DNA of 28,436 bases from an uncultured Verrucomicrobiae bacterium. Lineage in GTDB: Bacteria; Verrucomicrobiota; Verrucomicrobiia; Limisphaerales; JAFGQR01. A program made the position numbers and the translations under genes. The stretch lies in the NCBI GenBank assembly GCA_963788655.1, contig CAWBHS010000041.1:1-28436 (forward strand), read 5' to 3'. The stretch's first letter is position 1; each line of letters opens with the position of its first letter. This document shows, one piece after another, positions 858 to 23,506 of this stretch. Below the pieces are notes generated by a model. The model searched no databases. It was not told where the DNA came from and saw only the letters and a list, made by a program, of their open reading frames with translations.

Positions 858-902
858 GTAGGATTATACCCCATTGCACGCACCCAGCCCAGGGCGTAGT
901 GT
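858..902 (+). promoter_or_regulatory. 17-bp box GTAGGAT-TAT-ACCCCAT + 22 nt + -10-like TAGTGT
   Basis: Matches the motif and spacing found before six other transcription units in the window. Confidence 0.65.
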
Positions 903-1232
903 TGGCATCGTTCGAAAAGGCAAACGATAAACGCCGGCAATGCAAACATCCCATGAACGCGAAGCCCAGTTCGCACGAAGGACAATATGCAGTCCAAGAT
1001 CCGCCGTTAGCCAAAAAGGTCGGTCGGCAGATTGGCAGCGCGGGAGGTTTCAACGGGAGCGTGACCTTGAAGGCACCGTCCTGTTCCGGTTTCATCGGGT
1101 TGTCGCTCAGCGGGTCCATCCATGACTATCTCTTGAAACCGCACTCCACTTGGCTCCCGAACTCAATCCATCCGCAACAACGGCTGTTTTCCGCAGCGTT
1201 ATTTCCATGTCCCGAAAATATCCCAAACCATC

Positions 1233-4200
1233 ATGAAAACATCTGCTCTGATTCCCCTCCTCCTGGCTCTGGCGGGGTTCGTCGGCATCGTCCCATCCAC
1301 CGATTCCCAGGTCATCCTCGATCCCAACACCATCAGCGGCACGGTCCGCTTCAGCAATGTCAATCCGGACATTCTCGACCTGCTGAATCCGCCGGGCGAC
1401 GAAGGCATGGACTCGGTCTATGTGGTCGCCTACAGCCAGCCGCCGGCGCCGTCCTTCAACGCCGGCACGGACGATGTTCCAACCACGTCCCGCACCAGCA
1501 CGACGTTTGAAGTGGTCGTGGATTCCAGCGAGGCGGGATTGCTTACTCGGTGGTGCCGCGCATCACCATGGCCAACGTGCCGGAGCAGTATTATTTCGAG
1601 GCCCGTACGTCGGAGCCTGTCTTCGCCGGTGGACCGCCGGTGACGGTGGATTTCGCGGAATGCGTGGGCGTGTTGACCGTTCATTTCGTGGATGCCAGCG
1701 GTGATCCGGTGGCCGTGGATGGCGGCCTAATCCACAACGACAGCTATACGATCTACCGGTATTCCATTCCGGCTGGCGCCACCGAAGCGCGCGTCTATTT
1801 GCCCGGCGGCACGTCCGAGGACCTCAACCTCACCGGGTATCGCGGCACGGACTTCTACACCGACCGGCTCACCTTTTTCCTGCGCACCAACATCACCGTC
1901 GCGTGCGACGAACTGGCGACGGTGGACATGGTGATTCCTGATACCGGCGACCTGGGGCAGATCACCGGCGAAGTCGATTTGCTGGGGGAGTTTGAACTCA
2001 CCGTGGATGGCCGCGACGATCTCAATTTCCCCGATTCGACCGCGGTGATCGCCAATTATGGGCCGTTTGGCAATCAGCGTTGGGCTGCGGTACCGGGACT
2101 GGATTTCGTGCTTCCGTCCAGCGGCGGTTACCTGTTGCCGAATGTCGCGCCGTCCACGCTGGATCCGGCATCGCCAGGCTATGCCCTGTATGCGCAGATT
2201 ACATCCGAAGTGGCCGCCAGATTCAGTCGTTTCGTTCGCCGGCACTGGGCTGGGGCGCCAATCCGGCGGTAACCGTGCTGCCGGGGGAGAGCGTGGACCT
2301 GGGTAACTTGTTGGTCATTGATCCGGGTTACCTCGACGGGCAGATCGTTTTACAAGGACCAAATGAAAGTCCCGGTCACGATTCGCTGTTGCGCGGGTTG
2401 CTGCACGCCAGCGACGATGATCTGGACATGGACGGTGTGCCGGACAGTCTCGGCACGTACGGCGTGTATTGGAGCAGCGTCAGCGCGGACGGGGTGGATC
2501 AATTGGCTGCCGGCGCGACTCACACCGCGGCCTTTGGTACGCCAACGCGGATTTTTCCCTGTCATTCAATCCCGACAGCCTCGCCTTCGAGGGCAATTAT
2601 GAGTTGGCCCTGGGCGGGCTGAACAGCGAACCCAGTCTCTGGCTGCCCCGGACCCTTAGCCTGTCATTGTCCTCGCCACCCGAGGCTCCGGACAGCAATT
2701 ATTTCTATAATGTCTTCTCCGTAACCGACCAACGGGACATCACGATGGAAATCACCCCGGGCCAGGCAGCCACGCACGACATCGGTTATTGCTTCAGCGA
2801 GGTGACGTTGGTGTTCCGTTCCTCCGGTACGCCGTTCTTCAGTCCGCAGGTGCGTTTCAGTGAGGGGTCATTCCAGGGTCCGGATTTTCAAGGCAATGCC
2901 GCCGATTACACCGTCTATATTGACGCGGATTTCGGCATGCCCAACACGGCGGAAACCGCCGCTACCGTGGGGCAAGTGATCCTGGCGCTGCCGCAAGGCT
3001 CCTACCATTTGCTCCCCTTTGTGACACCGGCGGATTCCGGTTATGCGTTGACGGGATTGCAACCGATCGACCTTACGGTCGGCTGCGGCGAGCGGATCGT
3101 GCTCGAGCAATGTCTGCAAGTGCAACTCGCCGTGCCACCCTGCGCGGTGCCCGGACCCACCCAATTGACCGGCACGGTCCGCAGTTGCACCAACGCGGTC
3201 ACGTTAATCACCTACGAATTAAACGGCTCCGAGCCGATCATTGTGTGCGAGGAATGCGGCCCGGAGCCGGCCTTCGTCTTCGACCTGACCTTGGATCCCG
3301 GTCCCAACGCCCTGACCGTGACCGCGTACGATGACCAGGGAGGAACCAGTTCCGTGACCACCACGCTTGCCACCGATACTCTGCCGCCCATCATTCAGTG
3401 TCCGGAGGACATCGCCGTTGAAGCCACGCGTCCTTGTGGGGCCATCGTGGAGTTCACCGTAACCGCCACAGACAATTGCGACTTGGCTCCGATCCTTGTT
3501 TGCACGCCGCGTTCCGGCAGTCTATTCGCCGCCGGCGACACTGTCGTGAACTGCACGGCGACCGATGCGGCAGGCAATGTCGCCGAATGCGTTTTCAATG
3601 TGAACGTAACTGGTGGACCCGAGTTTCTGCCGCCAACCATCAGTGGCGTTTCACCCCAACTGATCGGGGATTCCGGCGGCGCCCAACTCACTATCAGCGG
3701 CGCCGATTTCACCGTGGATGACGAAGTATTGCTGAACGGCGTGCCGTTGCTGTATCCCGTGTTGGTCAGCGCGGAAGAAATCCAGGGCCAGTCGCCGCCG
3801 CTCCCGGCCGGCGCCTATGAACTGCAAGTCCGCCGTTGTGGCGAGATCGTGGCGAGTCTCCCCGATGCGTGTGTGAGCGGAACGTTGCCACGGATCCTCT
3901 CCGTTGATCTACCCCAAGCTTTTGCTGCGGGTGGGAATTATGTGACCGTTCTCGGGTCGAACTTCATCGCCACCACGCAGGTCCGCATCGGCTTCGCCGG
4001 ATCCAATCTGCTTCAGAATATTACGGTGTCCGAGGACGGCACCACCCTCATCGGTCAGGTGCCGGCGTTGCCCAACACCGAGGCGCTGGGACCGCGCGAT
4101 GTCATCGTCGAGGATGAGCGGGGCAGCGATATTCTGCCCGCGGGATTGACCTATTTGCCAAATCCATTCGAAACCGACCCCCAGGTCCTTGGCCTGCGCG

Positions 4201-7028
4201 CGCTGCAAACGGCTTCGACGGACCCGGTGGATTTGTATTGGCGTAATGGATTTCCGGGAGGAATGACTGCTCGCGTCAACGTCACGGGAGCAACACCCGA
4301 AGCGCGGGCGCGCTCGTTTGTTCGCAGTTTCAAAGATCTCTTGCGGGTGGAGAATCCGGATGCTGAGTTGGCAACGAAGCGAGTCCATTCCGAAGGACTC
4401 GACGATGTCTGGCTGGCTCAGACCTATGGCGGGCTCCCCGTGTTCGGCTCGGAAATCGTCGTCACCCTGGATGGCAATGCGGTCGTCTGCCTGACCGGCA
4501 ACCTCCTGCCCTCCGCGGCGCTCGATGCCCTGGGATTCGATCCCACCCCCGCCCTGAGCTCGGACGAGGCGGTGGAATTGGCCAAGGCGGATCAGAACCT
4601 TCAGCAACCCACCGCGGACCTGGCGGCGACGACTGAACTCATGGTGTACGACCAGCGTCTATTCATCGAAGCGCCGCTTGATCCCCATCTGGTTTGGAAA
4701 GTGGTGATGCGATTTTCCGACCTTGTCCACCTGGTGGACGCGCATACCGGCCAGATCGTGGCCCAGTTGGCCCAGGCGCCCTCGCACGAGTTCGACCTGG
4801 ACATTCAGGACGCCGAGCACGAAGCCAACGCCAACGACGACTGGTGTTTCAACTTGAGCAGCGACACAGACGTGGCGGATGAGGACGATTTCAATTCCGA
4901 CTACAACGGCGACCTGGACGCTGTGCTGGCCAACCGTTTCGCCATCGATTGCTGGCACTACTTCGACCACCATTTCGGCTGGGGCTCCTACGACAACGAC
5001 GACTCGCAACTCGAGATTTTCATTCACACGACCATCGCTCCGGCGGTCGTGGCGCAGTGGAGCAAGCAGTGTGATCTAATCCAGTTCGCCGATGGCGCCG
5101 TGGATTACGATATTCTGGTGCATGAATTCACCCACGGCATCATCGCGAGCACCAGCGGCCTCCAATACCAGTTCCAGTCCGGCGCGCTCGATGAGAGCTA
5201 CGCGGACACCATGGGCGTCATCGCCGACCGCGAACGGGGCGAAGTCGAAAGTGGCCAGCCGATCAACTGGATGATTGGCGAGGGCCGCCGGGCTCCGCAG
5301 CCGACGTTTCTGGTCCGCAATTACGATTTCCCCGGCGCTCCCCGCCCGGGTGGGCGTGGGGGGCAGCCGGACCACATGCGCAGCCTCTGCTGCATGGCCG
5401 TGGGCAGCCCAAACCAGGGTAATGATTTCGGGGGCGTTCATTCCAACAGCGGCATTCCCAATCGCGGCGGGTATTTGATGAGCGAAGGCGGCGCGACCAA
5501 TGGCTTCCTGGTTCGCGGCATGGGCATGGACAAAGTCCGGCTCATGAAATTTGCGGCCATGCGGAATCTGCCGTCGAACGCCGTCTTCACCGATGCGCGC
5601 GCGCGCGAAATCGCTGCCGCGCAATGGTTCAAGGATAACGCCCAGGGCGGCTTCGTGATCGAGGACCTCTGCACGGTGCGCGACGGCTGGGCGGCGGTCG
5701 GCGTGGGTCTCGGCGATTCCAACTGCGACGGGGTGGAGGACAACCGCCAGGACATTGATAACGATCTCATCGCCAATCGGGTGGACAATTGTCCCTCCAA
5801 GGCGAACCCGGACCAGAAGGACAGCGACGGCGATGGCCGCGGCGATGCCTGCGATAACTGCCCGTTGATGCCGAATCCCGGCCAGGAAGACCTGGACGGC
5901 GACGGCCAAGGCGACGTGTGCGACGCCGATCGTGACGGCGATGGCTGTCTGAACGCGGTGGATCAGAATCCGGACTCCAATCAACAGATCATCGGGAGTT
6001 TCCTCGGGCCTTTGTGCAATCCCCAAAGCGGGCCCATTTTCGGTTTTGCGGGGAACGATACCGACCATGACGGTATTCTGGATTGTCAGGACGAGGATGA
6101 TGACGGCGACGGAATCCCCGATGCTATCGACGCCTGCCCAGTGGGCGCGCTGGCCGGCGCCACTCTAGGCCCATGCACGGTGCTCAGAGATTGCCCGCTG
6201 GTTCCCAATGATTGGTGGCGCACCTGCCTGGGCGGTGGCTGCGTCGAGTTATACTCCCGATTTGTGAACGTCATTAATCCCGACCCCACCCGGACGGTCA
6301 TCATTGACACCGTCTCCATCGTGAACCAGACCCTGTACCTGCAGCCCAACACCGGCACCTCTGTGGCCGGTCTCGCCCAGCGAATTGCGCAGGTCGGTCA
6401 GCTTGCCGCGGTCGGCCGCGCGGCGCTCAACTCCGAACCGGGCCGCGTGCGCATCGAGCTTTGGGCGCGGGCGACTGACACCACGCCGGCTCATCTGGTC
6501 GCCATTGTGGGCGAATACGATCCGGCACTTCTGGAGCTGGGCCAGGTGGATTCCGGCCGCTTGCTGGCGCTGACTCCCGGTGGCGACGGCGTCCCGCCCA
6601 CCCTGGGCGCAACTTGGCAGCCCGGCACGGACCCGGCCACGGCCAGTCAGGACAACGATAATGATGGCATGGTGGATGGCTGGGAAATTCAGCACGGCCT
6701 CAACCCCCGAAATCCGGACGACGCGCTCCTCGATTCCGATGGCGATGGCGTGAACAATCTGGGCGAATTCCAGGACGGCACCGATCCGAATGATCCCGCG
6801 AGTGTGTTCCGCATTCTGCGCATCGCGCGGATGGCCGGCGCCGTGCGGATTGAATTCGTGGCCACCCCGGCTCGCCGCTTCCAACTGGAACGGAGTGCCG
6901 GGTTGGGGCAATCCGAATGGACGCCAATTGCCGAGTTGTCCGGCCGCGGCGGCATCGAGTCGCTGACGGATACCGGTCCTGCGGCTGAGAGCCAGGTGTT
7001 TTACCGGCTGAGTTCCATGCCGGACTAA
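1233..7028 (+). CDS. secreted multidomain thermolysin-family (M4) metalloprotease, ~1930 aa: signal peptide, long N-terminal beta region, HYR, 2x IPT/TIG, FTP/PepSY propeptide, M4 catalytic domain, thrombospondin type-3-like Ca repeats, C-terminal FYRL domain; 3 apparent frameshifts
   Basis: Signal MKTSALIPLLLALAG. ORFs 1233, 1550, 2080 and 2469 join with single-base deletions at ~1536, ~2200, ~2537. HYR DTLPPIIQCP...TATDAAGN (~3375-3608); HEFTH (5121-5135), GALDESYAD, DFGGVHSNSGI; DNCP..NPDQ.DSDGDGRGDACD repeats. Confidence 0.9.
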
Positions 7029-7068
7029 AGATTCGGTCTTCACCGGTCAACGGTTGAGTTATGAATAA

Positions 7069-7245
7069 ATGCGGATTTCTCGTCCTGCTGGGCTGCGTTC
7101 GGTCGCAGCCGGCTTGCGGCTGGATTCCTGGCTCATGACCGACAATCTCGTCACGGTGCGGGAATCAGAAATTGATTCCGTCCTTGGCCGGTTGCCGGAC
7201 ACAGCAGCGGACGCTGCGCTCAAACACACGTTTGCACTTTCATGA
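7069..7245 (+). pseudogene. 3' fragment of a PemK/MazF-family toxin gene
   Basis: Reads GLRLDSWLMTDNLVTVRESEIDSVLGRLPDTAADAALKHTFALS*, resembling PemK/MazF C-terminal halves. The N-terminal RP-containing half is absent. Recognised from memory, not searched. Confidence 0.6.
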
Positions 7246-7265
7246 GCAACGTTTGGTTCATCCTC

Positions 7266-7351
7266 GTAGCAGCCGAGGTAACGAGGCTCACTTCGATTTT
7301 GGATTTTGGATTTACGATTTTCAGTCAGAGCCTCCTCACGTCGGCTGCTAC
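7266..7351. repeat. GTAG-type REP-like inverted pair enclosing a (GATTTTG)-like short tandem repeat
   Basis: gtagcagccgaggtaacgaggctc (7266-7289) and gagcctcctcacgtcggctgctac (7328-7351) are 21/24 complementary. Confidence 0.8.
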
Positions 7352-7410
7352 CAAGGCAAAGGAGGCATGGAGGAATGAGCGACGGCTTCCGAAAGGGTGG
7401 GCGTCCGGCC

Positions 7411-7610
7411 AGCCCGGTTAGGGCGAAAGACAATAGCCCGCCGATTCATCGGTGGGACGCCATGCGTGTTTGGAACGAGTCCCGATAGGGACGAAAGAAA
7501 TCGGGCGCGTCATTCCCAGCATTCTTTCGCCCCTCCGGGGCTTGGGGGATTTTGGATCACGTTAACCCAGCGATAAATCGCTGGGTTATTTTCGGGTGTC
7601 CCGGTGGGAC
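7411..7610. repeat. composite palindromic REP/BIME-like element
   Basis: agcccggttagggcgaaaga and agtcccgatagggacgaaagaa are inverted to ttctttcgcccctccggggct; internal hairpins cccgccgattcatcggtggg and aacccagcgataaatcgctgggtt. Confidence 0.75.
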
Positions 7611-7896
7611 AAACCTAACCGGAGGCGTGGAGAAATGAACGATGACCCGGCTGCTCGAAGGGTGGCTGAGCGAAGTCCGCACGGCGGTGGAGCAGGCAGG
7701 CGAGTTGACGGAGGCGGCCATTCAAAAGCTCGTCCGTGGATTCGGGGGCAAAGGGCGTGAATGAACAGTGCCTTTTTGCCAAACGAACCCATCTTGAATA
7801 CGCCAGGCCGCGTCGGGGGGAACCAGGCCGGATCAAAGCAACCCAACGCGGTGAACCAAGTCAACCCTACAGCGACAGTTCCGGCGAATCGCGGCA

Positions 7897-7985
7897 GGAG
7901 CGCGGCGTTTACGCCGCTTCACCGTCCTATCCCGCAAGCCGCTGGTTGGCCTTTGGTGCTTGAAGCGGCCTAAAGGCCGCGCGCC
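7897..7985. repeat. REP-like inverted pair
   Basis: ggagcgcggcgtttacgccgcttca (7897-7921) and tgaagcggcctaaaggccgcgcgcc (7961-7985) are 22/25 complementary; each arm is itself a hairpin. Confidence 0.8.
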
Positions 7986-8099
7986 TATCTGTGATATGTG
8001 TCGCTGTAGTGTTAAACCCGTTGAGCCAGAGGTGAGCGGTCCCCCTTCCATCGCTCCTCCGAGCCGAATCAGTCGGGGCGGGTCAGGGCGGCCGCGGAG

Positions 8100-8144
8100 G
8101 TAGGGTTTTACCCCATAGCCAAAGACCGCTGCATCCCGGAGACT
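8100..8144 (+). promoter_or_regulatory. box GTAGGGT-TTT-ACCCCAT + 22 nt + GAGACT
   Basis: Box identical to 13091-13107; part of the duplicated GT4 5' region. Confidence 0.65.
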
Positions 8145-8159
8145 GATCCGGACGCAACA

Positions 8160-8501
8160 ATGGAATCACCATCCGAAATTCGAAAGATCGCGTTCCTTGG
8201 CGACTACTTGCCGCCCGAATGCGGCATCGCCACGTTCACGTCCGACGTGCTCCCCGCCGTGGCGGCGGAACACCCGGAGAGCCAGTGCTTTGCCGTGCCG
8301 GTGAACGACCTCCCGGGTGGCTACGAGTATCCGGGCGTGGTGCGCTTCGAGATCGAGGAGCAGAACCTGTCTTCCTATCAACGCGCCGCGGACTTTCTCA
8401 ATATCAGCAGCGCGGACATCGTCTGCGTGCAGCACGAGTTTGGCATCAACGACGGCCCGGCCGGCAGCCATCTGCTGGCGCTACTGCGCGAATTGTGGAT
8501 G
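8160..8501 (+). pseudogene. truncated diverged copy of the first 114 codons of the GT4 glycosyltransferase at 13151
   Basis: MESPSEIRKIAFLGDYLPPECGIATF...LLRELWM aligns without gaps to MEPTSEIHKIAFLGDYLPRKCGIATF...LLRELRM; similarity stops at 8501. Confidence 0.9.
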
Positions 8502-8592
8502 GCTGCTGGTGCAGGTGTTCCTTGGCGAACGAGGATGGTTGTTCAGATGATGTCTCATTCCCGAAACTCTTCGACGCCAGCCGCGGTGGCTG

Positions 8593-9609
8593 GTGTTGAT
8601 CGAGGCGTTGATGCTGGTGGGAGTGATCGGATGGTTTGACCACGCGACCAGCTCGGAATGGAGTTTCTTCCCGCCGTTTGCCTTGCCTATCATCCTCGGC
8701 GCTTGGAAGACCGGGTGGCGGCTGGGCTTTGCCTATGCCTGGCTGAGCGCCGCGGCCTTTTGGGTGGCACATCTCAGCAGCAACCCATATCACACCCACT
8801 GGGGCTTCGCCGTGGCGGTGTTGGGGCGTTGGTTTTACTTCGCCGTCTTCGTGCTGGCCGTGGCCGCGCTGAAGACCAAGTGGGAACTGGACCAGGCGCG
8901 CATCGCCAGCCTCCAACGGGCGGAGGCATTGGAGCGGGAGATCCTTCAGGTCGCCGATCAGGAAAAGGAGCGCCTGGGGAGGGAGTTGCACGATGGTTTG
9001 TGCCAGACGCTGGCGGGAATTTCGGCCCTCAGTGCGACGCTTTCCCGGAGGCTGGCGGCCGGCTCCGAAGTCGTTGCGGCACCCGCTGCCGTTGAAATCA
9101 CCAAACTGTTGCACGCCGCCATCAGCGAAGCGCGCGATCTGGCCCGCGGTTTCGGCCCGCTGGGCCTGGAGGCGGGCGGTCTCGACGCGGTGCTGGCCAC
9201 GCTGGCGGTCAGTCTCCAGAACCAGTTTGGCGTCACCTGCACCATTGAGTGTCCTCAGCCCTTTGTCCGGCTTCGCCATGGGGTCGCGTTGCACCTGTTT
9301 CGCATCGTCCAGGAAGGGGTGAACAACGCCCTGGCTCACGGCCGGGCGCAACGGATCGAAATCAGCCTGAGCCGCCAGGACGGGCAAGGGCTTTTAAGCG
9401 TCCGGGACGATGGGGTGGGACTGCCCGAGGAGGCCCTCCAGCGCGACGGGGTCGGGCTGCACACGATGGCCACTCGGGCGCGCCTGATCGGCGGTGCCAT
9501 CGAACTCCGCCGGCTCACCCCGCGCGGCACGGCGGTCCACTGCACTTTTCCCCTGCCCGATCCGCCCGATACCCTGGACCATTCCGATCATGCACCCGAA
9601 ATCAAGTGA
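8593..9609 (+). CDS. membrane sensor histidine kinase, NarX/NarL-associated type (HisKA_3 + HATPase_c)
   Basis: Hydrophobic N-terminal segments; ERLGRELHDGLCQTL H-box; EGVNNALAH, DDGVG, GVGL. True start may be ATG 8547/8550 with a 1-nt indel (LIPETLRRQPRWLVL is in frame upstream). Confidence 0.92.
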   Translation: MLIEALMLVGVIGWFDHATSSEWSFFPPFALPIILGAWKTGWRLGFAYAWLSAAAFWVAHLSSNPYHTHWGFAVAVLGRWFYFAVFVLAVAALKTKWELDQARIASLQRAEALEREILQVADQEKERLGRELHDGLCQTLAGISALSATLSRRLAAGSEVVAAPAAVEITKLLHAAISEARDLARGFGPLGLEAGGLDAVLATLAVSLQNQFGVTCTIECPQPFVRLRHGVALHLFRIVQEGVNNALAHGRAQRIEISLSRQDGQGLLSVRDDGVGLPEEALQRDGVGLHTMATRARLIGGAIELRRLTPRGTAVHCTFPLPDPPDTLDHSDHAPEIK

Positions 9610-10279
9610 ACACCGCCCGCCGGCCCCGAAGACGATTCTCATCGTGGACGACCACCCCATGCTGCGTCGCGGGCTGGCCAGTCTAATCGCGTCCGAGCCC
9701 GACCTCGCCGTCTGCGGGGAAGCCGCTACCTGCCAGGCCGCGCTCGCGGCCATCCGGGAGCGCGAGCCCGAGCTAGTGCTCGTGGATCTCACCCTCGAAG
9801 GAAGCGACGGCCTGGACCTGGTCAAGGATCTGAAGCTCCGCCACCCGAAGATCCCGGCGCTGGTGCTCTCGATGCACGACGAAGCGACGTATGCAGAACG
9901 GGCACTGCGGGCCGGCGCCCGGGGCTACGTCTCCAAACAACAACTCGACGAGACGATCCTGGTCGCCATCCGCCAGGTGTTTGCCGGTGAGACTTACCTG
10001 AGCGAAAAGCTCAAGGCACGGCTGGCGGCGCGATTCCTGGGTGGGAGCACCCTGGAAACCGGCTCCCCCCTCGCCGCACTCAGCGACCGCGAACTGCAGG
10101 TGTTTCGTTTGCTCGGCCAGGGCCGGGGCACGCGCCAGATCGCGGAAACCCTCCATCTCAGCATCAAGACCATCGAATCCCACTGCGAGCACATCAAGGT
10201 CAAGCTGAGCTTGCAGTCCGCGGCCGAACTCGCTCACTGCGCCACGCAATGGATGGAATCCAGCAGCCGCGGAGGTTGA
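9590..10279 (+). CDS. NarL/FixJ-family response regulator (REC + LuxR HTH)
   Basis: ILIVDDHPMLRRG, LVDL phospho-Asp, LSDRELQVFRLLGQG..IAETLHLSIKTIESH. ATG 9590 overlaps the HK end. Confidence 0.95.
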   Translation: MHPKSSEHRPPAPKTILIVDDHPMLRRGLASLIASEPDLAVCGEAATCQAALAAIREREPELVLVDLTLEGSDGLDLVKDLKLRHPKIPALVLSMHDEATYAERALRAGARGYVSKQQLDETILVAIRQVFAGETYLSEKLKARLAARFLGGSTLETGSPLAALSDRELQVFRLLGQGRGTRQIAETLHLSIKTIESHCEHIKVKLSLQSAAELAHCATQWMESSSRGG

Positions 10280-10300
10280 ATCGACCATTCCGGATACAGA

Positions 10301-10323
10301 TAGGCGGACCTGCCGGTCCGCCC
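10301..10323. repeat. REP-like hairpin GGCGGACC-TGCC-GGTCCGCC, copy 1
   Basis: Same sequence at 10983-11005 and 12724-12748. Confidence 0.85.
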
Positions 10324-10377
10324 AAACATCATCCGCACTTGGTATGACTCCCGATTTCCTCTTCCTTCGGCTCCGGC

Positions 10378-10941: not shown

Positions 10942-10982
10942 CCACCATCACGGATCGAAGCACCGGTCCTGCCTGCCACGGA

Positions 10983-13150: not shown

Positions 13151-15547
13151 ATGGAACCAACATCTGAAATCCATAAAATCGCCTTTCTTGGCGACTACTT
13201 GCCGCGCAAATGCGGCATTGCCACGTTTACGTCCGACGTGCTCTCCGCCGTATCGGCGGAACACCCGGAAAGCCAGTGCTTTGCGGTGCCGGTCAACGAT
13301 CTCCCGGGCGGCTACGATTATCCCGAAGCGGTGCGCTTCGAGATCGAGGAGCAGGATTTGACTTCCTACCAACGCGCCGCGGATTTTCTCAACATCAGCA
13401 GCGCGGACATCGTTTGCGTGCAGCACGAATTCGGCATCTACGGCGGCGTGGCCGGCAGCCATCTGCTGGCGCTGCTGCGCGAATTGCGGATGCCCGTCGT
13501 GACCACCCTGCACACCGTCTTGCGCGAACCCAATACCGAGCAGCGGCGCGTCATGCGGGAGTTGATTGCCCGCTCGACGCGGCTGGTGGTGATGACCGAG
13601 CGGGGGCAGCGGATGTTGCGGGAGATTTACCAGGCGCCCGCGGCTCGCATTGATCTTATCCCGCACGGCATTCCCGACATGCCGTTCGCCGATCCCAACT
13701 ATTACAAGGACCAGTTCGGCGTGGAAGGCCGGCTCGTGCTGCTCACGTTCGGACTGCTTTCCCCCAACAAAGGCATCGAGCATGCGCTCAACGCGCTGCC
13801 GGAGATCCTGGCGGAGTTTCCCAACGTCGTTTACATCGTTCTGGGCGCCACCCATCCGAACCTGGTGCGCGAGCACGGCGAGTCCTATCGCTTGAGTCTC
13901 GAGCGGCTGGCCAAGAAGAACAACGTCCAAAAACACGTCATCTTTTACAATCGGTTCGTCGAACTCGAGGAACTGAAGGAATTCATCGGCGCGGCGGACC
14001 TTTACCTCACGCCCTACTTGAACGAAGCGCAGATCACCTCGGGCACCCTGGCGTACGCGTTTGGCGCGGGCAAGGCGGTGATCTCGACGCCCTACTGGCA
14101 CGCGGCGGAATTGCTCGCCGACGGGCGTGGCGTGCTGGTGCCGTTCGGCGACAGCAAAGCCATCGCCCGGGAAGTCATCGGCCTGCTGAACGACGAGACG
14201 CGCCGGCACGCCATGCGCAAAAACGCTTACAAGCTGGGCCGCGAGATGGTGTGGAGCCACACGGCGCGGCTCTACATGCAATCCTTCGAGCGCGCGCGGA
14301 TCGAAGGGGCGGTGTGGTCCCGCAAATCGTTTGCCGTGAAAACCCTGGACCAGGCGCCGCGGGAGTTGCCAAAACTCGAGCTGGAACATCTGTCGCGGAT
14401 GACCGATTCGACTGGGATTTTCCAGCACGCCATTTTCACCGTGCCAAATTTTTCCGAAGGTTACTGCACGGACGACAATGCGCGGGCCTTCATCCTGGCC
14501 GTGCTGCTGGACGAGATGAAGGAAGAACCAGAGCAGGTGCGGACCCTGGCCACGACGTATGCGGCGTTTCTGCATCACGCGTTCAATCCCCAGACCAAAC
14601 GGTTCCACAACCACCTTAGCTTCGAACGGCGCTGGCTCGATGACCAGGGTTCGGAGGACTCTCATGGCCGGGCACTTTGGGCGTTGGGCCTGGGCGTGGG
14701 GCACTCCCCGTATCGCAGTTTTCAGGTCATGTCCGGACAGATCTTCGCTCAGGCGCTGCCCGCCGTGGCGGACTTCAAGTCGCCGCGCGCCTGGGCCTTC
14801 ACCTTGCTGGGCATTCACGAGTACCTGCAGCGGCTGAACGGGGATCGGTTTGCCCACCAGATGCGGGACTCGCTCATGACGCGGCTCATGGAATTGTACG
14901 ACCGGACGGCCCGACCGGATTGGCCCTGGTTCGAAGACGTGTTATCCTACGACAACGCCAAGTTGGCCCATGCCTTGATCCTGAGCGGGCGGGCGACCGG
15001 GCAGGCACCGGTGTTTGAGCGGGGCCTGCAGGCGCTCCGCTGGCTGACAGAAATGCAAACGGCCGAGAGCGGTGATTTCCGGCCGATCGGCAGCAACGGA
15101 TTCTACCCGCGCGGCGGCACTCGCGCGACCTTCGACCAGCAACCCATCGAGGCGCACTCGATGGTGTCGGCCTGTCTCGAAGCTTACCGCGCCACGTTGG
15201 ACCCGCAGTGGTATGCGCACGCCCAGCGCACCTTCGACTGGTTCCTCGGCTGGAATGATCTCGGTTTGGAACTATACTGCTCGGCCACTGGCGGCTGCCG
15301 TGATGCGTTGCACGTGGATCGCGTCAACCAGAACCAAGGCGCGGAATCCACCCTCGCCTTCCTGCTCTCGCTGGCGGAAATGCAGCTTATTCAACCCGCG
15401 ATCACGGTATTCAACCCGCCCCCGACGGAGCCAAACGCCCTCCCGGATCAACGCAGCCCTCTCACTCCGTCCAACTCCCTCAGTGGGGGAGAATGTGACT
15501 TCGAGGCAGATGCGAGGGAACGCGTCCCAACCCCGCTGCCCGTTTGA
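13151..15547 (+). CDS. glycosyltransferase family 4 (GT-B) fused to a C-terminal helical (alpha/alpha barrel-like) domain
   Basis: PRKCGIATF, TFGLLSPNKGIE, QITSGTLAYA, STPYWHA; C-terminal GYCTDDNARA, FDQQPIE, NQGAESTLA; adjacent to a GH130 gene as is usual for this family. Confidence 0.93.
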   Translation: MEPTSEIHKIAFLGDYLPRKCGIATFTSDVLSAVSAEHPESQCFAVPVNDLPGGYDYPEAVRFEIEEQDLTSYQRAADFLNISSADIVCVQHEFGIYGGVAGSHLLALLRELRMPVVTTLHTVLREPNTEQRRVMRELIARSTRLVVMTERGQRMLREIYQAPAARIDLIPHGIPDMPFADPNYYKDQFGVEGRLVLLTFGLLSPNKGIEHALNALPEILAEFPNVVYIVLGATHPNLVREHGESYRLSLERLAKKNNVQKHVIFYNRFVELEELKEFIGAADLYLTPYLNEAQITSGTLAYAFGAGKAVISTPYWHAAELLADGRGVLVPFGDSKAIAREVIGLLNDETRRHAMRKNAYKLGREMVWSHTARLYMQSFERARIEGAVWSRKSFAVKTLDQAPRELPKLELEHLSRMTDSTGIFQHAIFTVPNFSEGYCTDDNARAFILAVLLDEMKEEPEQVRTLATTYAAFLHHAFNPQTKRFHNHLSFERRWLDDQGSEDSHGRALWALGLGVGHSPYRSFQVMSGQIFAQALPAVADFKSPRAWAFTLLGIHEYLQRLNGDRFAHQMRDSLMTRLMELYDRTARPDWPWFEDVLSYDNAKLAHALILSGRATGQAPVFERGLQALRWLTEMQTAESGDFRPIGSNGFYPRGGTRATFDQQPIEAHSMVSACLEAYRATLDPQWYAHAQRTFDWFLGWNDLGLELYCSATGGCRDALHVDRVNQNQGAESTLAFLLSLAEMQLIQPAITVFNPPPTEPNALPDQRSPLTPSNSLSGGECDFEADARERVPTPLPV

Positions 15548-15568
15548 AGCGAGAGGCCAAAATCTAAC

Positions 15569-17024
15569 ATGAACACCGCTACGATTCAGCGCACCAATGT
15601 TGTCCTGCATCCCGACCGCACCCGGGTGCTGCTCCGACCGTTTCTGCTCCCGAACGAGCCGCGCGCCCGGACGATTTGCGGCCAGGTCATGGCGCTGCCC
15701 GAAACCGAAGTCCACGCGCTCTGGAAGCAAGTGCAGGCCGAGTTCGGCGAACGCCACGCGAAAACCCGTGAGTTCCTCGGCCAGCGCTTCGAGCAGGCCC
15801 GCCCCTATCTGAGCACTGACGCGAAGCTCTCCGCGGAACGCGAGTGGTTGCTCGGCGCGTATTTCAGCCACGAGTATTCCCTCGAAGCGGCGGCGCTGTT
15901 CAATCCCTCGATCGTGCCGCACCCGGACCAGTCGGAGCTTCCGCCGGGTTCGCTGCGCTTCATCCTCAGCCTGCGGGCCACCGGCGAAGGACACATTTCT
16001 TCAATCACCTTTCGCGCCGGCGTCCTCGACGTCCTGGGCAACCTCACGGTCAATGTGCCCAGCCGATATTGCCTGGAGCCCGAGCAAGTGCCCAATGCGT
16101 CCTTCGAGAAAGAACTGTTCGAGCGAAAGCTTCGCGAGCTGGGCTTGATCGGGGACTTCACTCGCCAGACCCTCCAGTCCCTGGGCGAGGCGTTTACGCT
16201 GGAGGAATTGCGCGTGGCCGTCGGTCGCGCCACCGAACACCTGGGCGCGCGCGATAGCCAAACCAAAGCCGTGGCCCGCAAAACCCTGATGCTGGCCCAA
16301 TCGAATTACGACGTGCAGTTCGCGCCGGACTCGCGGTTGTCCGAGCGCGTGCTGTTCCCCACCACCCCGTCGCAAAGCAATGGCATCGAGGACGCCCGCT
16401 TTGTTTTGTTCCAGGACGAGGACGGCACCCGGACTTATTACGCGACCTACACCGCCTACGACGGCAAAATGATTCTGCCGCAGTTCATCGAGACGCCCGA
16501 CTTTTTGCATTTCAAGTTCATCACGCTGAACGGTCCGGCGGTGCGGAACAAAGGGATGGCGCTGTTCCCGCGCAAGATCAATGGCCACTACGCGATGCTC
16601 AGTCGGCAGGACAAGGAAAACATCTACCTCATGTTTTCGGATCATCTGCATTTCTGGCACACCGCGCAGGTTCTCCTGGAGCCGAAGTATCCCTGGGAAT
16701 TCATCCAGTTGGGCAACTGCGGCTCGCCGATTGAAACCGAGGCCGGCTGGCTGGTGATCAGCCACGGCGTCGGCGCCATGCGTAAATACTGCATCGGCGC
16801 CTTCCTGCTCGACCGGGACGATCCCACCCGGGTGCTCGGCCGCTTGCGGGAGCCGCTGATCACGCCGAACGAGAACGAACGCGAAGGCTACGTGCCGAAC
16901 GTGGTCTATTCGTGCGGCAGCCTCCTGCACGGTCGCCAACTCATCATCCCCTACGCGATGTCCGACTACGCCACCACCTTCGCCACACTGCTCGCTCGAG
17001 GCGGTGCTGGCGGCGCTGGAATAG
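15569..17024 (+). CDS. glycoside hydrolase family 130 (PH1107-related) protein; +1 frameshift near 16990
   Basis: ALFNPS, NGIEDARF, NKGMALFP, GNCGSP, YVPNVVYSCG. Removing one base at ~16991 gives TLSLEAVLAALE* (TAG 17022-17024), as the duplicate at 20771 confirms. Confidence 0.92.
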
Positions 17025-17087
17025 GCAAACGGAGAGTAGGAATCATCGAGGCCCGGGGCGAACCTTTGGCCACGGCCAGGACCAAAG

Positions 17088-17132
17088 GTAGGGTTATACC
17101 CCATATCCCCCGCCCGCGCACTAGTGTATGCT
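17088..17132 (+). promoter_or_regulatory. box GTAGGGT-TAT-ACCCCAT + 22 nt + TATGCT
   Basis: Good -10; ATG 17139 is at the expected +1 position. Confidence 0.78.
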
Positions 17133-17135
17133 TAA

Positions 17136-20100
17136 ATGATGATTATCAGATTACTTAAATACCTAGCCTCTCGGCGAAGCCGCGCCAGCGCTTGCGCACT
17201 GGTCACTCTAACCGCTGTCCTGGGGACAGTTCCCGCGACCCGGGCCGCCGACACGGAAATCCTCTCCTTCACCCCGGAAGCCTGTTGCGGTCCCGGCAAC
17301 TATGTTTTGCGCGCTCGCGTGCCCAGCAATTCCGTGGTCCAACTCCATGGGCGCGCCAATCTGGCAACCAATGCCGACTGGATCGACTTTGGCGCTCCGG
17401 TGTTTGTCTTGAACCGCGAGGAAGTGGAGTTCTACGTGCCTTACGTGCCGGAACCTAATTCCTTCTTCCGGCTCTCCGCGGCATCTGCGCAAATCTCCTT
17501 GACGGACGACGGCAGTCAATTCCACCTCCAGACGACAAATCCCGTTCCCCTCGGACTGATCCTGCAAGCGGCTGGGGGCACTGCAGGCACGGAGGTGTTT
17601 CTCGTGGGCACGAACTGTGATCCCTTCGCACTGGTCGATCCGATCGATACTACCGCCATTGATTTGGAGGGACTCTTCCGCCAACTGGGTTGCACCGTCC
17701 GAGTGGCCCCGCCGCCGGGCGACACGACCAATTCCACCAGCCGCTTCGCGCTCGATTCTAGTCTGCAAAACGATCCTCTCCCAGAAACACCCGGCGTGGG
17801 TCTGTTGGAAGACGGCCATCCCGGCGATTCCGGCTTCCCCGATGCGGGTGTGGGCGACCTGGATCCGGAACCGCTGCCCACCCATGACAAGGGCCTGGTC
17901 CAGGAGATCCCGCCAGGCCCCGACACCGGCGGGCCTGAAGACGATCCAACCCTGGTCGAACCGGGCCGGCACTTACGGGTGAAAGTGACCCTTCAGCACG
18001 ACGGTGGGGTGACGTTGACTCGCGCGTTCGAGAATACCGGCGACGCTCGCTTGGCCTGGCCAACGATGCCTTTGGAGGACGATACGGTGGTGTGTGTCGT
18101 GCGTTCACCGCTCCACACGAACGATCCCGCCGGAATTTACTTTATCAATGCGCTGGCCGATCCGTTTGAAATCCGCAGCTACGACCCGCCGCCCGAGGGC
18201 CGGACGCACTTTGGGCACCAGGAGTCAATCGCTCTGCGCCTGCCGATTCCCCTGTTGCCGGAAGACACCGATCTGAGCGGACTGTTGGTGGAGTTTCACC
18301 GCGTATTGGCCAATCCGGACGGTGAGATGCTGGATGCAACCGCGTTCGACCGCCATCCCGAACTCTTCCAGTCGTTGGGGCAAATCACCGGCGACGAACT
18401 GGCCCTCTTGCTGCGGTCGGGCGGCGGGCGGCGGGTGGCCCAAGCGCCGTCCAACGCCACGCTGCACACCCTCTATCGCGGCGGTTCGATGGCCAGCAAA
18501 TACAACCTGGTCTTCGTCGCCGACGGTTTCGACGACAGCGCCTTCGACCAACAACGCTTCAGCAACTGGGTCCAAACGGTCGCCCTGGAGAACGTGTTTG
18601 GCCGCGATATCGGCCCGGAGATCATGAATGCCATGAACATCTTCCGCATCGACACGGATTCCGTGGACTCGGGCATCACGCTATCCGACCCCAACAACGT
18701 GGTAACCAACGCCAAGAACACCGCACTCGATTTCCGCTACAATGGCACCTGGGGCAAGTGCTGGATCGACGTTGGTCCCAATGGGCAGCAGCGCCTGGAC
18801 GACATTATTGACGAATTGCTGCCGCAGGCCGACGGCATCGCGGTGGTGCTGAATCGGTTGGCCAATGGCGGCTGCGCCTCCGGCATCCTGGTCCGCCTGC
18901 CCCTGGGAACCACCTTCGCCGACAACTGGGGCACCCTGGCCCATGAGTTCGGCCACTCCTTCGGCAAACAAGGTGACGAGTATTCCTGCGGTTTTGGTGA
19001 ATCACTCACCAACAGCGCCTGCATCACCTACACCGACCCGGAACCCAGCGCCGGCAACCTCACCACCAATCGTTACCGCAAATTCCTCAAATGGGGCGAG
19101 TGGGTTCCCCCGTGGCGACCGCTGCCGACCCCGAAAGACAAGGTGGCCGACATGATCCAGGATGTGGGCGCGTTCCAAGGCGCCACCAAGAGCGCGAGCA
19201 AGTAACTGGTCTTGGCCTCTATCGGCCCTCGTTCGATAGCCGTATGGCGGGCGGCAGTCAGCAATTCAATCCAGTGAATTACAATGCCACGCGCAAGGGT
19301 GCCCACAAATACGCTGCCCATTACTTCTCGCACAACACCGCCGTCGGCGATTTCGACGGCGACGGGCACGCCGATCTCGTGCAGCGCGCGGATCGGCAAC
19401 TCAGCTTGTTCCTGTCCGGTCCGCGCCCGCTCGGCGCGGATGATCCGCTCACGGGCAGCAACCCGCGCTCGGCGGGCACCGTGCTGTTGCCCACCTGGAC
19501 CGCCAACGACCGCATTTATTCCGCCTCCGGCAACAGTTACTGGAAATTCGACCGGGACGACGAGGTGCTGCCCGGCGATTTCGACGGTGACGGCAAGACG
19601 GACCTCTACTGCATCAATCGCCAGGGGTGGTCGCATCGCTACGTGTGCCTGCTCAAGTCCCAAGGCACGAACTTCATTCCGGTCGCCTACTACGTGGACC
19701 AGCTCCCGGGTTGGGGCGCCCTGCGGCCCACGGACGAGTTCTACGTCGGCGACCTGGACGGCGATGGCCGCGATGACTTGATGGTCTTCAACGGACTCGA
19801 ATGGAACATGCCCTACTTCTGTCTTCTGCGCTCAACCGGCACGGCCTTGACCTACCTCAAACGTTACGACAACAACCTGCCGGGCAACCAAATGGGCCGG
19901 CACGAGACATTCCGCATCGCCGATCTCAATGGCGATGGCCGGGCGGACGTGGTGAGCTGGAATACGAAAGATTGGGCCAAGCCGAACCTGGGTTTCTATA
20001 CGTTCAACAATGGCAAGCTGAACTTCGTCACCCGCTACTACGGGACCATCACCGGCCCGGCGGGCGGCGGCTTCAGCTACACGCTGCGCAAACGCGACCA

Positions 20101-20608
20101 ACTCACTTTTGGCGATCTCAACGGCGACGGTCGCACCGACCTGGCCCTCTTCAACGACCTCAACTGGAGCAAGAAGTATCTCACGCTCTTCGCGTGCGAC
20201 GCGTCGGCCCGGCTCCAATTCCTGACCGGCTATGTGGACCAGGTGCCCGGCTGGACGCTGAAGTATGGGGACACATTCTACGCCGCCGACGTGGACGGCG
20301 ACGGCGACAAGGACTTGATCGCCCAAAACACCATAGGCTGGGAGAACCACTACCTCGGTATCCTGCGCTCGAATGGCACGGGACTGTCCGGCGCTGTGCA
20401 GCAGATGACGGCTTTCTCCGGAAAAGGGCTCAACGTCGTGTACGGCACCGTGGCCGATTTCCACGGCAACGCCGGCTGGGAAGACCTCTTCCTCTACACG
20501 ACCCAGCGCCTGGTCCTGATCCGCAGCCAGAACACGAAACTGAGCGTGGAAGCTGTTTATCCGGACTTCATCCACAACCACCGCTTCCACGCACAGGGCT
20601 GGTGGTGA
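17136..20608 (+). CDS. secreted M64 (IgA peptidase)-like zinc metallopeptidase with C-terminal FG-GAP/VCBS repeats; frameshift at ~19204-19213
   Basis: Signal peptide ending ATRA; YNLVFVADGF, HEFGH (18942-18956)..GDEY, KWGEW. Removing two bases gives KYWSGLYRPSFDSRM and joins the ORF with six GDFDGDG-type repeats. Confidence 0.85.
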
Positions 20609-20894: not shown

Positions 20895-21061
20895 AATCTG
20901 GAGAACCGAAACGGCCAACCACATCGAACGGCTCCTGGCCAGCGCGGCGGATGAGGCCCAACCGACTGCGGAGCCAGACCGGAAACAAGTGTGATCTGTA
21001 GTCAATCAACAGCAATCAGTAATCAGTTGGAACATTTCAGCGTGCGAGGTGGTTCACCCCC

Positions 21062-21976
21062 ATGATTTGGTCGCCGCTGAACCTCACTGTCCGGGTCGGC
21101 TGCCACCTGGCCTACCAAACCACCGTCCCCACGCCGGTGCTGTTTGTGCTCAAACCCCGGCTCGAAGGCCAGGTGCTGGTGATGCAGGAGAAGCTCTCGT
21201 TTGGCATTGGGCAGCCTGCGTATGAATTTCAGGACTCGCATGGCAACATCACCTCTCGCTCGATGTTGATGCCGGGGGGCAACGACATTCAGCATGATGC
21301 GCTGGTCGCCGTTTCGGCTCAGCCCGACAACCGGGAAGTGCTGGGACCGATTCAGCCCGTGGCCCAACTCCCTTCCGAGCTGTTGCGCTACACGTTACCC
21401 AGCCGCTATTGCGATTCGGATAAGCTGATGAATTTCGCCTGGGAACAATTCGGGCAGATCCCTCACGGCCTGCCGCGCGTGCAAGCCATCTGCGATTGGG
21501 TCCACAAGAATATCGAATACCGCTACCTGTCCGGCCGGGCGGACCTCTCCGCCTCCGAAGTCATCGAACGGCGCTTCGGGGTTTGCCGCGACTTCGCCCA
21601 TGCGGCCATTGCGCTGTGTCGCGCCTTCAATCTACCCGCCCGCTACGTCACCGGACACCTGCCGGACATCGGCTGCGCCGACGCGGGGACGCCGATGGAT
21701 TTTCATGCCTACTGCGAAGTCTATCTCGGCCAGGACTGGCTGACTTTCGATCCGCGTTTCAACGTTCCGCGCATTGGCCGGGTGAAGGTCGCGCACGGCG
21801 CGGACGCGGTGGATGGCGCGTTTGCGACGATCTATGGCGAGGCCAAGCTGACCACGTTTGAAGTGTGGGCGTATCAGGTGAATCCGCTGGAAGTTTCCGT
21901 GGGCGATCCCATTGATTTATCCCAACGCCTGGATGGCCAGCCGACGGTGCGACTCAGTGCGTCAGGACCACCATGA
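21062..21976 (+). CDS. transglutaminase-like family protein
   Basis: PSRYCDSD, GVCRDFAH (catalytic Cys), DFHAYCEVY, TFDPR. Confidence 0.93.
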   Translation: MIWSPLNLTVRVGCHLAYQTTVPTPVLFVLKPRLEGQVLVMQEKLSFGIGQPAYEFQDSHGNITSRSMLMPGGNDIQHDALVAVSAQPDNREVLGPIQPVAQLPSELLRYTLPSRYCDSDKLMNFAWEQFGQIPHGLPRVQAICDWVHKNIEYRYLSGRADLSASEVIERRFGVCRDFAHAAIALCRAFNLPARYVTGHLPDIGCADAGTPMDFHAYCEVYLGQDWLTFDPRFNVPRIGRVKVAHGADAVDGAFATIYGEAKLTTFEVWAYQVNPLEVSVGDPIDLSQRLDGQPTVRLSASGPP

Positions 21977-23437
21977 CGATGGCCGTTGGCAATCTGGTGC
22001 ATGACGTCTGGCACCTCGCGGCCATCGGACTGGGGCTGCTGCTCTCGGTGGTGGCGACGGGACACGCAGTGCTCCACAAGCGGGATTCGCGCGCCGCCAT
22101 CGCGTGGGTGGGTTTCGTGTGGCTTGTGCCCCTGGTCGGGGCGGTCCTGTACTTCATCTTTGGCGTCAATCGCCTTCGCCATAAGGCCGCACTGCTGCGT
22201 CGAAACCTGGAACGTTACCGGGCCCAAGCCGCAGAACCCGAATGTTTGCCGGAAGCGTTGCCGCGCCATTTGCCGGATTACGGGGGGCATCTCCAGATGC
22301 TGGCCCGCGTGGTTGAGGGGGTGGTCGATCGGCCCCTGCTGCCGGGCAATCGGATCGATCCGTTGGTGAACGGCGATGAAGCATATCCGGCCATGCTGGA
22401 AGCGATCCAAAACGCCCGCCAGACCATCTGCGTTCGTGACCTACATCTTCGATCGGGACGAAGTCGGCATGGCCTTTGCGCAGGCGTTGGGCGCGGCCGC
22501 GCGCCGGGGCGTGGAAGTGCGGGTGCTGGTTGACGCGACGGGAGCTCGATACTCCTGGCCCACCATTCTCCCCACGCTCCGACAAGTGGGAGTGAAGTAT
22601 GCCCGCTTTCTCCCGTCCTTTGCGTTGTGGCATCTGATGTCGATGAACCTGCGCACCCACCGTAAGATCCTCGTGGCGGATGGGCGCGTGGGCTTTACCG
22701 GCGGCATGAATATTCGCGTGGGCCATTGCCTGCACCGGCAACCGCGCCACCCGGTTCAGGATCTCCATTTCCGGGTGACGGGCCCGGTGGTGACTCAACT
22801 GCAGGAAGTGTTCACCGACGATTGGCTCTTCACCACCGGCGAAGCGTTGCGCGGTGAGGCGTGGTTCCCCCCCACCGAAAGCGCGGGGCCGGTTTTGGCG
22901 CGCGGCGTGACGGATGGCCCGGATGAGAATTTCGAGAAGCTGCTGTGGACGCTGCTGGGTGCCCTCGCGATTGCCCGCGATTCCGTCCGGATCATGACGC
23001 CCTATTTCCTGCCGGACCCGACCGTGGTCTCCGCCCTGAATCTGGCCGCCATGCGGGGGGTGCAGGTGGATATCGTTCTGCCCGCGCGGAGCAACCTGCC
23101 GTTCGTCTTATGGGCCTCCCGGGCAATGTGGTCGCAAGTGATCCGGCATGGCTGCCGCATCTGGCTGACTCCGCCGCCCTTCGATCATTCCAAACTCATG
23201 CTGGTGGATGGCTGCTGGGTGCTGCTGGGATCGGCCAACTGGGATGCGCGCAGCTTGCGCCTGAACTTTGAGTTCAACCTGGAATGTTACGACGCCGCCC
23301 TCGCCCAACGGTTGGAGCAGTGGGTCGATGCGAAACGCAAGGGCGCCCATCCGGTGACAATGGCGGAGGTCAATAGCCGCCCCCTGCCGGCTCGCCTGCG
23401 GGATGGCATCGCGCGTTTGCTGACGCCGTACTTGTAA
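21973..23437 (+). CDS. cls: cardiolipin synthase (PLD family); +1 frameshift at ~22430
   Basis: N-terminal membrane PLDc_N-like region; two HKD motifs HRKILVADG and HSKLMLVDG; GSANWD.RS; ATGA coupling with the upstream gene. Confidence 0.92.
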
Positions 23438-23459
23438 TCCGGGACTTGTGGGTGGTGAG

Positions 23460-23506
23460 ATGGGGTAAACACCCCATAGCACAACACCGGGTTAGGGGAC
23501 TATTTT
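23460..23506 (+). promoter_or_regulatory. box ATGGGGT-AAAC-ACCCCAT + 23 nt + TATTTT
   Basis: Perfect 7-4-7 palindrome; ATG 23513 is at the expected +1 position. Confidence 0.72.

Follow-up and report, generated by a model that had tools for sequence, protein, structure and literature searches.

Two candidate NarL/FixJ-type regulators and three operator forms in a gene island of an uncultured verrucomicrobium

Which regulator reads the palindromic boxes that stand before the genes of a verrucomicrobial island? The island lies on a 28,436-nucleotide (nt) contig of an uncultured Verrucomicrobiae bacterium (CAWBHS010000041.1; this whole stretch is the window, contig C41 of genome G000), and an earlier note on this DNA had proposed that nine boxes ahead of seven promoters share one motif, through which the response regulator (RR) encoded locally at 9590-10279 activates most of the island. 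From the sequence comparisons described below, we consider it probable that two NarL/FixJ-type activators of different clades share the island. One of them, here called RR-V and encoded outside the window, would act on two of three box classes (A and C), while the local regulator would act on the third (B); a duplicated promoter at 8100 would license the imported cassette that encodes the local regulator.

Box classes and promoter geometry

All nine boxes were found, at 858, 8100, 10378, 10402, 11079, 11104, 13091, 17088, and 23460. The seven -10 hexamers of the earlier note were also present as quoted, 22 nt past the distal box (23 nt for 23460), and the starts (+1) that it had predicted at 909, 8151, 10453, 11155, 13142, 17139, and 23513 agree arithmetically. 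Its 17-bp consensus held for part of the set: allowing up to one mismatch, it gave six matches in the window versus a mean of 0.15 (maximum of 2) in 100 shuffles, but did not match 10402, 11104, and 23460. The single shared motif was refuted by cross-scoring with matrices trained exclusively on sites of other genomes, which separated the boxes into classes A, C, and B and ruled out one motif for all sites. The boxes at 858, 8100, 13091, and 17088 belong to class A (GTAGGGTTWYACCCCAT) and score 25 to 32 bits as such, the 18-bp box at 23460 belongs to class C (ATGGGGTRAAYACCCCAT) and scores 30.8 bits, and the pairs 10378+10402 and 11079+11104 reach 48 and 43 bits as composite class B sites and -1 to -30 bits as class A. 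The consensus sequences of classes A (gGTAGGGTTWYACCCCATAGC) and C (18-bp aTGGGGTRAAYACCCCATAGC) have the promoter-side half ACCCCATAG in common and differ in spacing and in the distal half, which is GTAGGGT at 3 nt in class A and ATGGGGT at 4 nt in class C. Class B is bipartite, with ATGGGGSWWTSCCCCAY followed by 7 nt ending in AA and a weak site ending in CCCYGATG.

Throughout G000 (8.96 Mb, 86% complete), GTAGGGTTATACCCCAT occurs in 14 copies at up to one mismatch and in none at two: four in the window, four on C42, three on C35, one on C11, and two on C18 and C19, which are copies of the 858 site. The class A matrix from other genomes recovered the same 14 sites, and column-shuffled matrices gave 2 to 4 matches. 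A check set beforehand asked for enrichment outside coding DNA, and 13 of the 14 indeed lie outside rough gene calls in a genome that is 78% coding; the remaining one (17088) lies past the C terminus of a GH130 gene that ends at 17024 in another frame. Further class C boxes are on C35, C42, C76, and C18 (C18:9760). The composite class B site occurs twice, both times in the local cassette, with no other site above 7 bits.

The distance to the -10 is conserved as well. Of 90 class A sites of other genomes, 70 are followed by an nAnnnT hexamer at precisely 22 nt (the next best spacing accounts for 9), and 36 of 39 class B operators have one at 22 to 23 nt; for class C, 10, 6, and 4 of 25 sites have it at 22, 23, and 24 nt. 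With the -10 at positions -12 to -7, the proximal dyad is centered near -43 and overlaps a poor -35, and class B has its primary dyad near -67 and its weak secondary site near -43. Apart from the -10 at its fixed distance, the flanks of class A and C boxes are not conserved, and no conserved second site was found within 24 nt upstream of them (weak sites further off were not searched). A generic sigma70 scan of 7000-17400 gave 0 promoters compared to 2.1 in shuffles, which shows no more than poor -35 elements. The boxes and their fixed -10 spacing are real, promoter-linked, and of two regulator kinds. The proposal of a NarL-type activator near -43 was right in kind: the dyads lie there before sigma70-type -10s, a NarL-type protein is the likely binder, and all three classes are most likely sites for such activators. 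A reading of CCCCAT as a sigma32-type -10 was rejected, with no conserved -35 found upstream. As the predicted +1 coincides with an ATG at both 17139 and 23513, these two promoters would be leaderless; nine class A sites (of 77) and five class C sites (of 15) likewise have an ATG 6 to 7 nt past the -10 and would yield leaderless mRNAs.

Regulators that accompany the box classes

Classes A and C were followed through an order sample (G000 plus 200 other genomes) and a separate phylum sample of 301 genomes. Class A occurred in 59 of the 201 genomes of the order (58/200 besides G000; 5 matches for a reversed control), class C in 73 of 201 (control, 0), and strict class A in 25 of the 301 phylum genomes, mostly outside this class. 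The sites are clustered in islands, whose proteins were scanned against Pfam (131 of 163 called in three genomes and 55 of 75 in G000). Hallmark families of general-stress targets are present: CsbD, BON, DUF883, holin-X/YqjE-like, DUF892, long catalase, ferritin-like, HSP20, PfpI, entericidin, PRC-barrel, and YflT, together with an N-ATPase operon in G000. The 186 proteins scanned included neither a sigma factor nor Crp (genome-wide sigma co-occurrence was not searched), and only one other protein, in G068, carried a LuxR-type domain.

RR-V is a NarL-type regulator with receiver (PF00072, phospho-acceptor Asp present) and PF00196 domains. It is the last gene of an operon with cheB/cheR-PAS and HisKA_3 kinase genes (an adjoining kinase is, e.g., L117:2017-3267) and lies in G000 at C18:37-730, 9.05 kb left of the window. 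A divergent class C box (C18:9760-9777), 6 nt beyond the left end of the window, faces both this operon and a small conserved open reading frame at 89-349 (+). The C18 copy is frameshifted in the assembly; a paralogue (C97:3290-3982) is intact. RR-V was called at E≤1e-60 among the 14 or 9 candidates scored per genome, and the tables for the order were compiled by hand from box and regulator scans, leaving out G000. Of the 58 A-positive genomes, 51 had RR-V, as did 34 of the 142 A-negative ones (odds ratio, 23); for class C, the counts were 61 of 72 positive and 24 of 128 negative genomes. In the phylum sample, 17/24 box-positive versus 17/276 box-negative genomes had RR-V (odds ratio, 37), with a box within 6 kb of it in 12 of those 17; two one-contig genomes have their single strict box 1.1 kb (G366) and 2.3 kb (G397) away. 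Boxes frequently lie 20 to 160 nt past RR-V and ahead of its operon. An A or C box lay within 1.5 kb of the gene at 19 of 30 RR-V loci and at none of 85 loci of the local regulator's family. The broad subfamily of the latter was associated with class A at an odds ratio of 2.3, with no effect inside RR-V-positive genomes (39/51 versus 24/34). In a quick regulator tree, with SH-aLRT as the sole support and loci with a stop or fewer than 190 aligned residues (e.g., L034 and L045) excluded, RR-V formed a clade (support, 97) in which 19 of 30 members had A or C and none had B. A search of solved structures returned general family members only (VraR, DesR, NarL, and DevR). Classes A and C most likely belong to RR-V, a putative stress-response switch of Verrucomicrobia. 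In two genomes, the RR-V signaling operon lies behind a class A box and begins with a gene for a 239-amino-acid protein (L122:11532-12248 and L127:9846-10562) that has a C-terminal HisKA_3 but lacks an ATPase domain.

The local regulator (9590-10279) likewise combines a receiver that retains its Asp (PF00072) with a GerE helix-turn-helix (PF00196), adjoins its cognate HisKA_3 kinase (8593), and is a candidate binder of class B only. Across the 200 other genomes of the order, nothing matched it at more than 57% identity; its relatives were found at 79 loci in many phyla, and the 1.29 Mb around them contained no A or C box. At loci with at least 60% identity, TRGGG-N5-CCCYA occurred 32 times in 25 loci, versus 0 to 3 times for other spacers, in two fixed positions, past the regulator and past a lone receiver gene. 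A class B site lay within 1.5 kb of the gene at 17 of 23 such loci, at 7 of 62 less similar ones, and at 0 of 30 RR-V loci. In the tree, the 9590 clade (SH-aLRT, 98) comprised 26 proteins from Acidobacteriota, Pseudomonadota, and Eisenbacteria, and 18 of these had a class B box no further than 1.5 kb away. Starting from the DNA instead, the B pattern alone matched 15 metagenome loci; 11 of them encode an orthologue of 9590 or 10495 no more than 1.5 kb upstream, and RR-V was beside none. Since the orthologues of the local regulator accompany the tandem class B operator and not A or C, two promoters were assigned to it. The earlier attribution of most of the island to this regulator therefore most likely stands for the promoters of 10495 and 11173 and fails for the other five; of the three secreted proteins attributed to it, most likely only the one at 11173 remains.

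The carriers include Acidobacteriota and Alpha-, Beta-, and Gammaproteobacteria, among them named Bradyrhizobium species, and the gene past the second operator varies between genomes and often looks secreted. As B operators and orthologues recur together with differing cargo, the kinase, regulator, receiver, and cargo slot form a portable cassette. The lone receiver (10495-10941, 54% identical to the receiver of the regulator) is probably a phosphate sink, because it keeps its phospho-acceptor Asp and would be induced by the regulator that it resembles. The recognition helices read KTVEKHRQ in RR-V and KTIESHRE in the 9590 clade, and differ at the positions expected from an alignment to NarL residues. 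Another clade of the regulator subfamily has its own dyad, GTAGGGTTGCRCCCTAC, and a second site (L053:4388, L072:10696, L058:10102, and L080:8709). Further paralogue clades have related GGG-N5-CCC dyads right behind the regulator (L050:10687, L054:10639, L067:10649, L063:10839, and L070:4076), and these would be material for a helix-to-site code.

The link between both systems is local. Positions 8091-8501 are an 85% copy of the promoter and 5′ end of a GT4 glycosyltransferase gene (13081-13492), ending some 50 nt ahead of the kinase; the boxes at 8100 and 13091 are duplicates, as the earlier note had said. Upstream of 18 orthologous kinases, a search of 1.5 kb with the pattern used gave no A or C box; L034 has one loose look-alike. 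Because the duplicate precedes the kinase here and other kinases lack A and C, RR-V would drive the cassette in this genome. No clear terminator was found between 8151 and the kinase, save a weak 6-bp stem at 8519.

Several observations weigh against the assignment of two regulators. At the chosen threshold, RR-V is missing from seven of the 58 box-positive genomes of the order and from seven of the 24 in the phylum sample, and G038, with no scored RR-V, has four A and three C boxes; incompleteness of the sampled genomes bears on these cases. Conversely, 18 genomes have RR-V and neither box at strict patterns. The odds ratios are overstated: related genomes are not separate observations, and because the island moves as one unit, any gene in it would co-occur. 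The connection of the window to RR-V depends on its 99% overlap with C18, and C19 represents a third copy (98%) with a diverging continuation. Class A boxes reach 8 to 15 bits on the class B primary matrix, which makes cross-binding or cross-talk possible, and the training sites of the B matrix were chosen by eye next to orthologues. Four of the 15 B loci found from DNA had no cassette gene in the 1 to 1.5 kb examined and may be stand-alone targets or are unexplained. The kinase may own a promoter, as its L045 orthologue seems to. The weakest step is that one protein would read both 17- and 18-bp dyads with different distal halves, which would be unusual.

That last step leads to the alternative that survives best, although we consider it unlikely: class C would be the site of an RR-V homodimer, and asymmetric class A would be recognized either by RR-V paired with another LuxR-type protein in a heterodimer or by some second factor. 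RcsB forms heterodimers with partner proteins. Classes A and C have only the promoter-side half in common, and a symmetric form of the left half of A, GTAGGG-N5-CCCTAC, follows another regulator clade (L053 and L072). However, no second LuxR-type gene recurred in the islands examined, A and C co-occur (C in 49/58 A-positive versus 23/142 A-negative genomes) and are equally tied to RR-V, and the distal half varies freely next to RR-V genes, where ACCCCATAG is kept, as expected if a single protein has one strong half-site and one tolerant one.

We give little credence to the local regulator as the binder of all seven boxes and driver of the island. The half-sites do have CCCCAT in common, class A boxes do score on the B matrix, and this regulator is intact amid the boxes, whereas the nearest RR-V copy is frameshifted. 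Against this, the 200 genomes without an orthologue above 57% include 58 with class A, the surroundings of its relatives are free of A and C, and the paralogue on C97 is intact; activity of 9590 on these classes would be, at most, incidental cross-binding in this one genome. Slightly less credible still is an alternative sigma factor that would use the right half as a -35-type element, or a binder that is encoded elsewhere and belongs to another protein family. Directionality of the conserved block, which extends to AGC on the promoter side, speaks for this, and stress regulons with such genes are usually sigma controlled (EcfG; PMC7083833). Yet the end of CCCCAT lies 22 nt from the -10, too far for a -35, and the -10 is TAnnnT; class C is a true dyad that serves divergent promoters (C18:9760), the scanned island proteins include no sigma factor, and the boxes hug RR-V genes. 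That the boxes have no regulatory role and are a small repeat or a scar of recombination multiplied by duplication is hardly believable: several local duplications did occur, one copying a box, but only the -10 is conserved in the flanks, the boxes always point toward a gene, and the same geometry recurs in dozens of genera and in other classes.

Genes and history of the island

All features of the window described here are on the + strand. The class A operator at 858-874 (one mismatch; 25.1 bits; -10 TAGTGT at 897-902) is upstream of a gene for a secreted M4 (thermolysin-like) metalloprotease with HYR/TIG/TSP3 domains (1233-7028, in three frames: 1233, 1550, and 2469). This site does not directly adjoin a gene start: the signal-peptide start at 1233 is 324 nt further on. 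Two dispersed repeat families with many genomic copies (7409-7610 and 7859-8015) separate the M4 gene from the duplicated promoter with its class A operator at 8100-8116 (31.4 bits; -10 GAGACT at 8139-8144). The truncated GT4 copy (8160-8501, 85% to 13151-13492) is directly ahead of the membrane HisKA_3 kinase of the imported cassette (8547-9609; open frame from GTG 8593). The start of the L045 kinase orthologue matches 8547-8550, one base out of frame in the window; the truncated GT4 frame (8160-8639) reaches the ATG matching that start, and a GT4-kinase fusion frame is possible given the one-base shift. Past the regulator, class B operator 1 (10378-10420; primary 10378-10394, secondary 10402-10420; -10 CACATT at 10441-10446; 48.2 bits) precedes the lone receiver gene, a conserved cassette member, and operator 2 (11079-11122; primary 11079-11095, secondary 11104-11122; -10 CAGATT at 11143-11148; 43.4 bits) precedes the secreted choice-of-anchor Q protein (11173-12438) in the variable cargo slot.

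The class A operator at 13091-13107 (-10 CACACT at 13130-13135) precedes the genes for the GT4 glycosyltransferase (13151-15547) and a GH130 phosphorylase (15569-17024), regulon genes common to other islands; G057 has the same box before the same GT4 gene. Next, the class A operator at 17088-17104 (-10 TATGCT at 17127-17132; +1 at ATG 17139) precedes a secreted M64 peptidase with FG-GAP repeats (17139-20608, two frames). A class A box also lies behind GH130 in three other genomes, before other genes, and the M64 gene occupies that place here. Homologues of M64 were found in 4 of 200 genomes and those of the N-terminal part of M4 in 6 of 200, and no box was present in the 0.6 to 1.5 kb upstream of them (0/4 M64 loci, 0/7 M4 loci in 6 genomes, 0/11 together). 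As the homologous loci have no box, both proteases are recent recruits and not core members. The class C operator at 23460-23477 (-10 TATTTT at 23501-23506; +1 at ATG 23513) precedes a B12-binding radical SAM/DUF4070 gene in pieces (23513-24999), followed by M50-CBS, dodecin, and LapA genes; G068 has a class C box ahead of the same gene.

C18 overlaps positions 1-7255 at 99% and C42 overlaps 26900-28280 at 98%; therefore, the island extends past both ends of the window. Single-base shifts split many genes (M4, the kinase start, the GH130 end, M64, cls, radical SAM, M50/dodecin, and RR-V on C18), and 1-7255 is present in three copies of 98 to 99% (C18, C19, and C41). Assembly error or strain mixture is the likely cause of both. 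Three direct pairs of diverged (85 to 91%) duplicated gene ends, 8091-8501/13081-13492, 10783-10943/12453-12612, and 16896-17014/20766-20884, flank the cassette, its cargo gene, and the M64 gene and look like insertion scars left by homologous recombination. A transglutaminase-like gene (21061-21983) is 99% identical to G000:C35:12364-13286; the sister island there has three A boxes and two C boxes. The N-ATPase operon (26832-28436 plus G000:C42:1-7518) has the order beta, epsilon, AtpQ, AtpR, a, c, b, alpha, gamma; alpha and gamma are separated by a VIT1-family gene, and no A or C box was found preceding the operon. Five CTGGGGCRWYGCCCCAG palindromes within 1 kb (G000:C100:16657-17636) have the appearance of a REP-type array and are unrelated to the operator boxes.

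A proposed circuit and its relation to known systems

Taken together, the two-regulator assignment suggests a circuit of two steps. Under stress, a phosphorylated RR-V dimer would bind the ACCCCATAG half and the distal half 3 nt (A) or 4 nt (C) away, and its dyad near -43, abutting a poor -35, would recruit sigma70 polymerase to general-stress operons, including its own signaling operon in a positive loop. Through the duplicated GT4 promoter at 8100, RR-V would license the horizontally spread cassette. The local regulator would then act through class B, with its strong dyad near -67 and weak site near -43, to turn on the lone receiver (likely negative feedback) and the cargo gene. The two protease genes would have landed behind pre-existing class A promoters. 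More tentatively, Verrucomicrobiota may have a general stress response without an alternative sigma factor, with one RR that, fed by a CheB/CheR-PAS relay, reads one half-site in two dyad geometries, and with landing-site promoters and a two-step cascade; we regard this wider picture as possible rather than probable. If it is true, the 17- and 18-bp geometries could be two tiers or two dimer forms, RR-V promoters would be landing sites that bring incoming genes (two secreted proteases and a whole cross-phylum cassette) under stress control, and a two-step cascade would have been caught while forming, its cassette carrying its own tandem operator and a swappable cargo slot.

Verrucomicrobiota are abundant in soil and sediment, and no stress regulator or operator described for them was found in the literature searched. 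The same search, which did not extend to regulon databases, subscription papers, or supplements, turned up nothing on the A/C boxes, the B boxes, or a stress regulon of Verrucomicrobia. Both candidate operator-regulator pairs are undescribed members of the NarL/FixJ kind of regulon. With a box and a named candidate regulator, the stress regulon becomes predictable from sequence; the second operator defines a small portable cassette in several phyla, and the window is an example of similar-looking boxes that could pass for a single regulon although they belong to two paralogue clades. Sigma factors govern the general stress responses of SigB and RpoS. NreC of staphylococci is a NarL-type regulator that binds a GC-rich TAGGG...CCCTA palindrome with a spacing of 4 nt; unlike there, the TRGGG-N-CCCYA core has a spacing of 5 or 6 here, and N4 is at background in G000 (11 matches, like other spacers).

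DevR/DosR of Mycobacterium tuberculosis uses two to four boxes per promoter, with an invariant C7 and the proximal box 33 to 34 nt from the start (PMC3177182). The systems resemble each other in having a NarL-family regulator, a large stress or dormancy regulon that includes its own operon, and 18-bp G-rich dyads, and class B has a similar tandem layout of primary and weak secondary sites. They differ in phylum, in the single box seen per class A or C promoter, in position 7 (T in classes A and C and mostly G in B, unlike a Dev box), in the CsbD/BON/catalase-type genes, and in the upstream cheB/cheR-PAS kinases. NarL of Escherichia coli binds as a dimer at -43.5 of yeaR, abutting the -35, and at two sites, -44.5 and -77.5, of ogt; its sites have a 7-2-7 arrangement with the TAC.. 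half first (TAACCAATAAATGGTA at yeaR) (PMC10853779). The proximal dyads near -43 next to the -35 resemble the yeaR arrangement, but the ACCCCAT half is on the right here, and the spacing is 3 or 4 nt. The two regulators score 129 and 138 bits, short of the NCBIfam NarL cutoff of 250 bits, and are not NarL/NarP proper. The EcfG regulon of Sphingopyxis includes csbD, catalase, and ecnAB among its targets (PMC7083833). The islands overlap with it in csbD, catalase, ecnAB entericidin, envelope proteins, and the system's own signaling genes; in contrast to EcfG, they show no alternative sigma factor among the proteins scanned and no GGAAC-N16-CGTT promoter, and the output is apparently a DNA-binding RR that acts on sigma70-type promoters.

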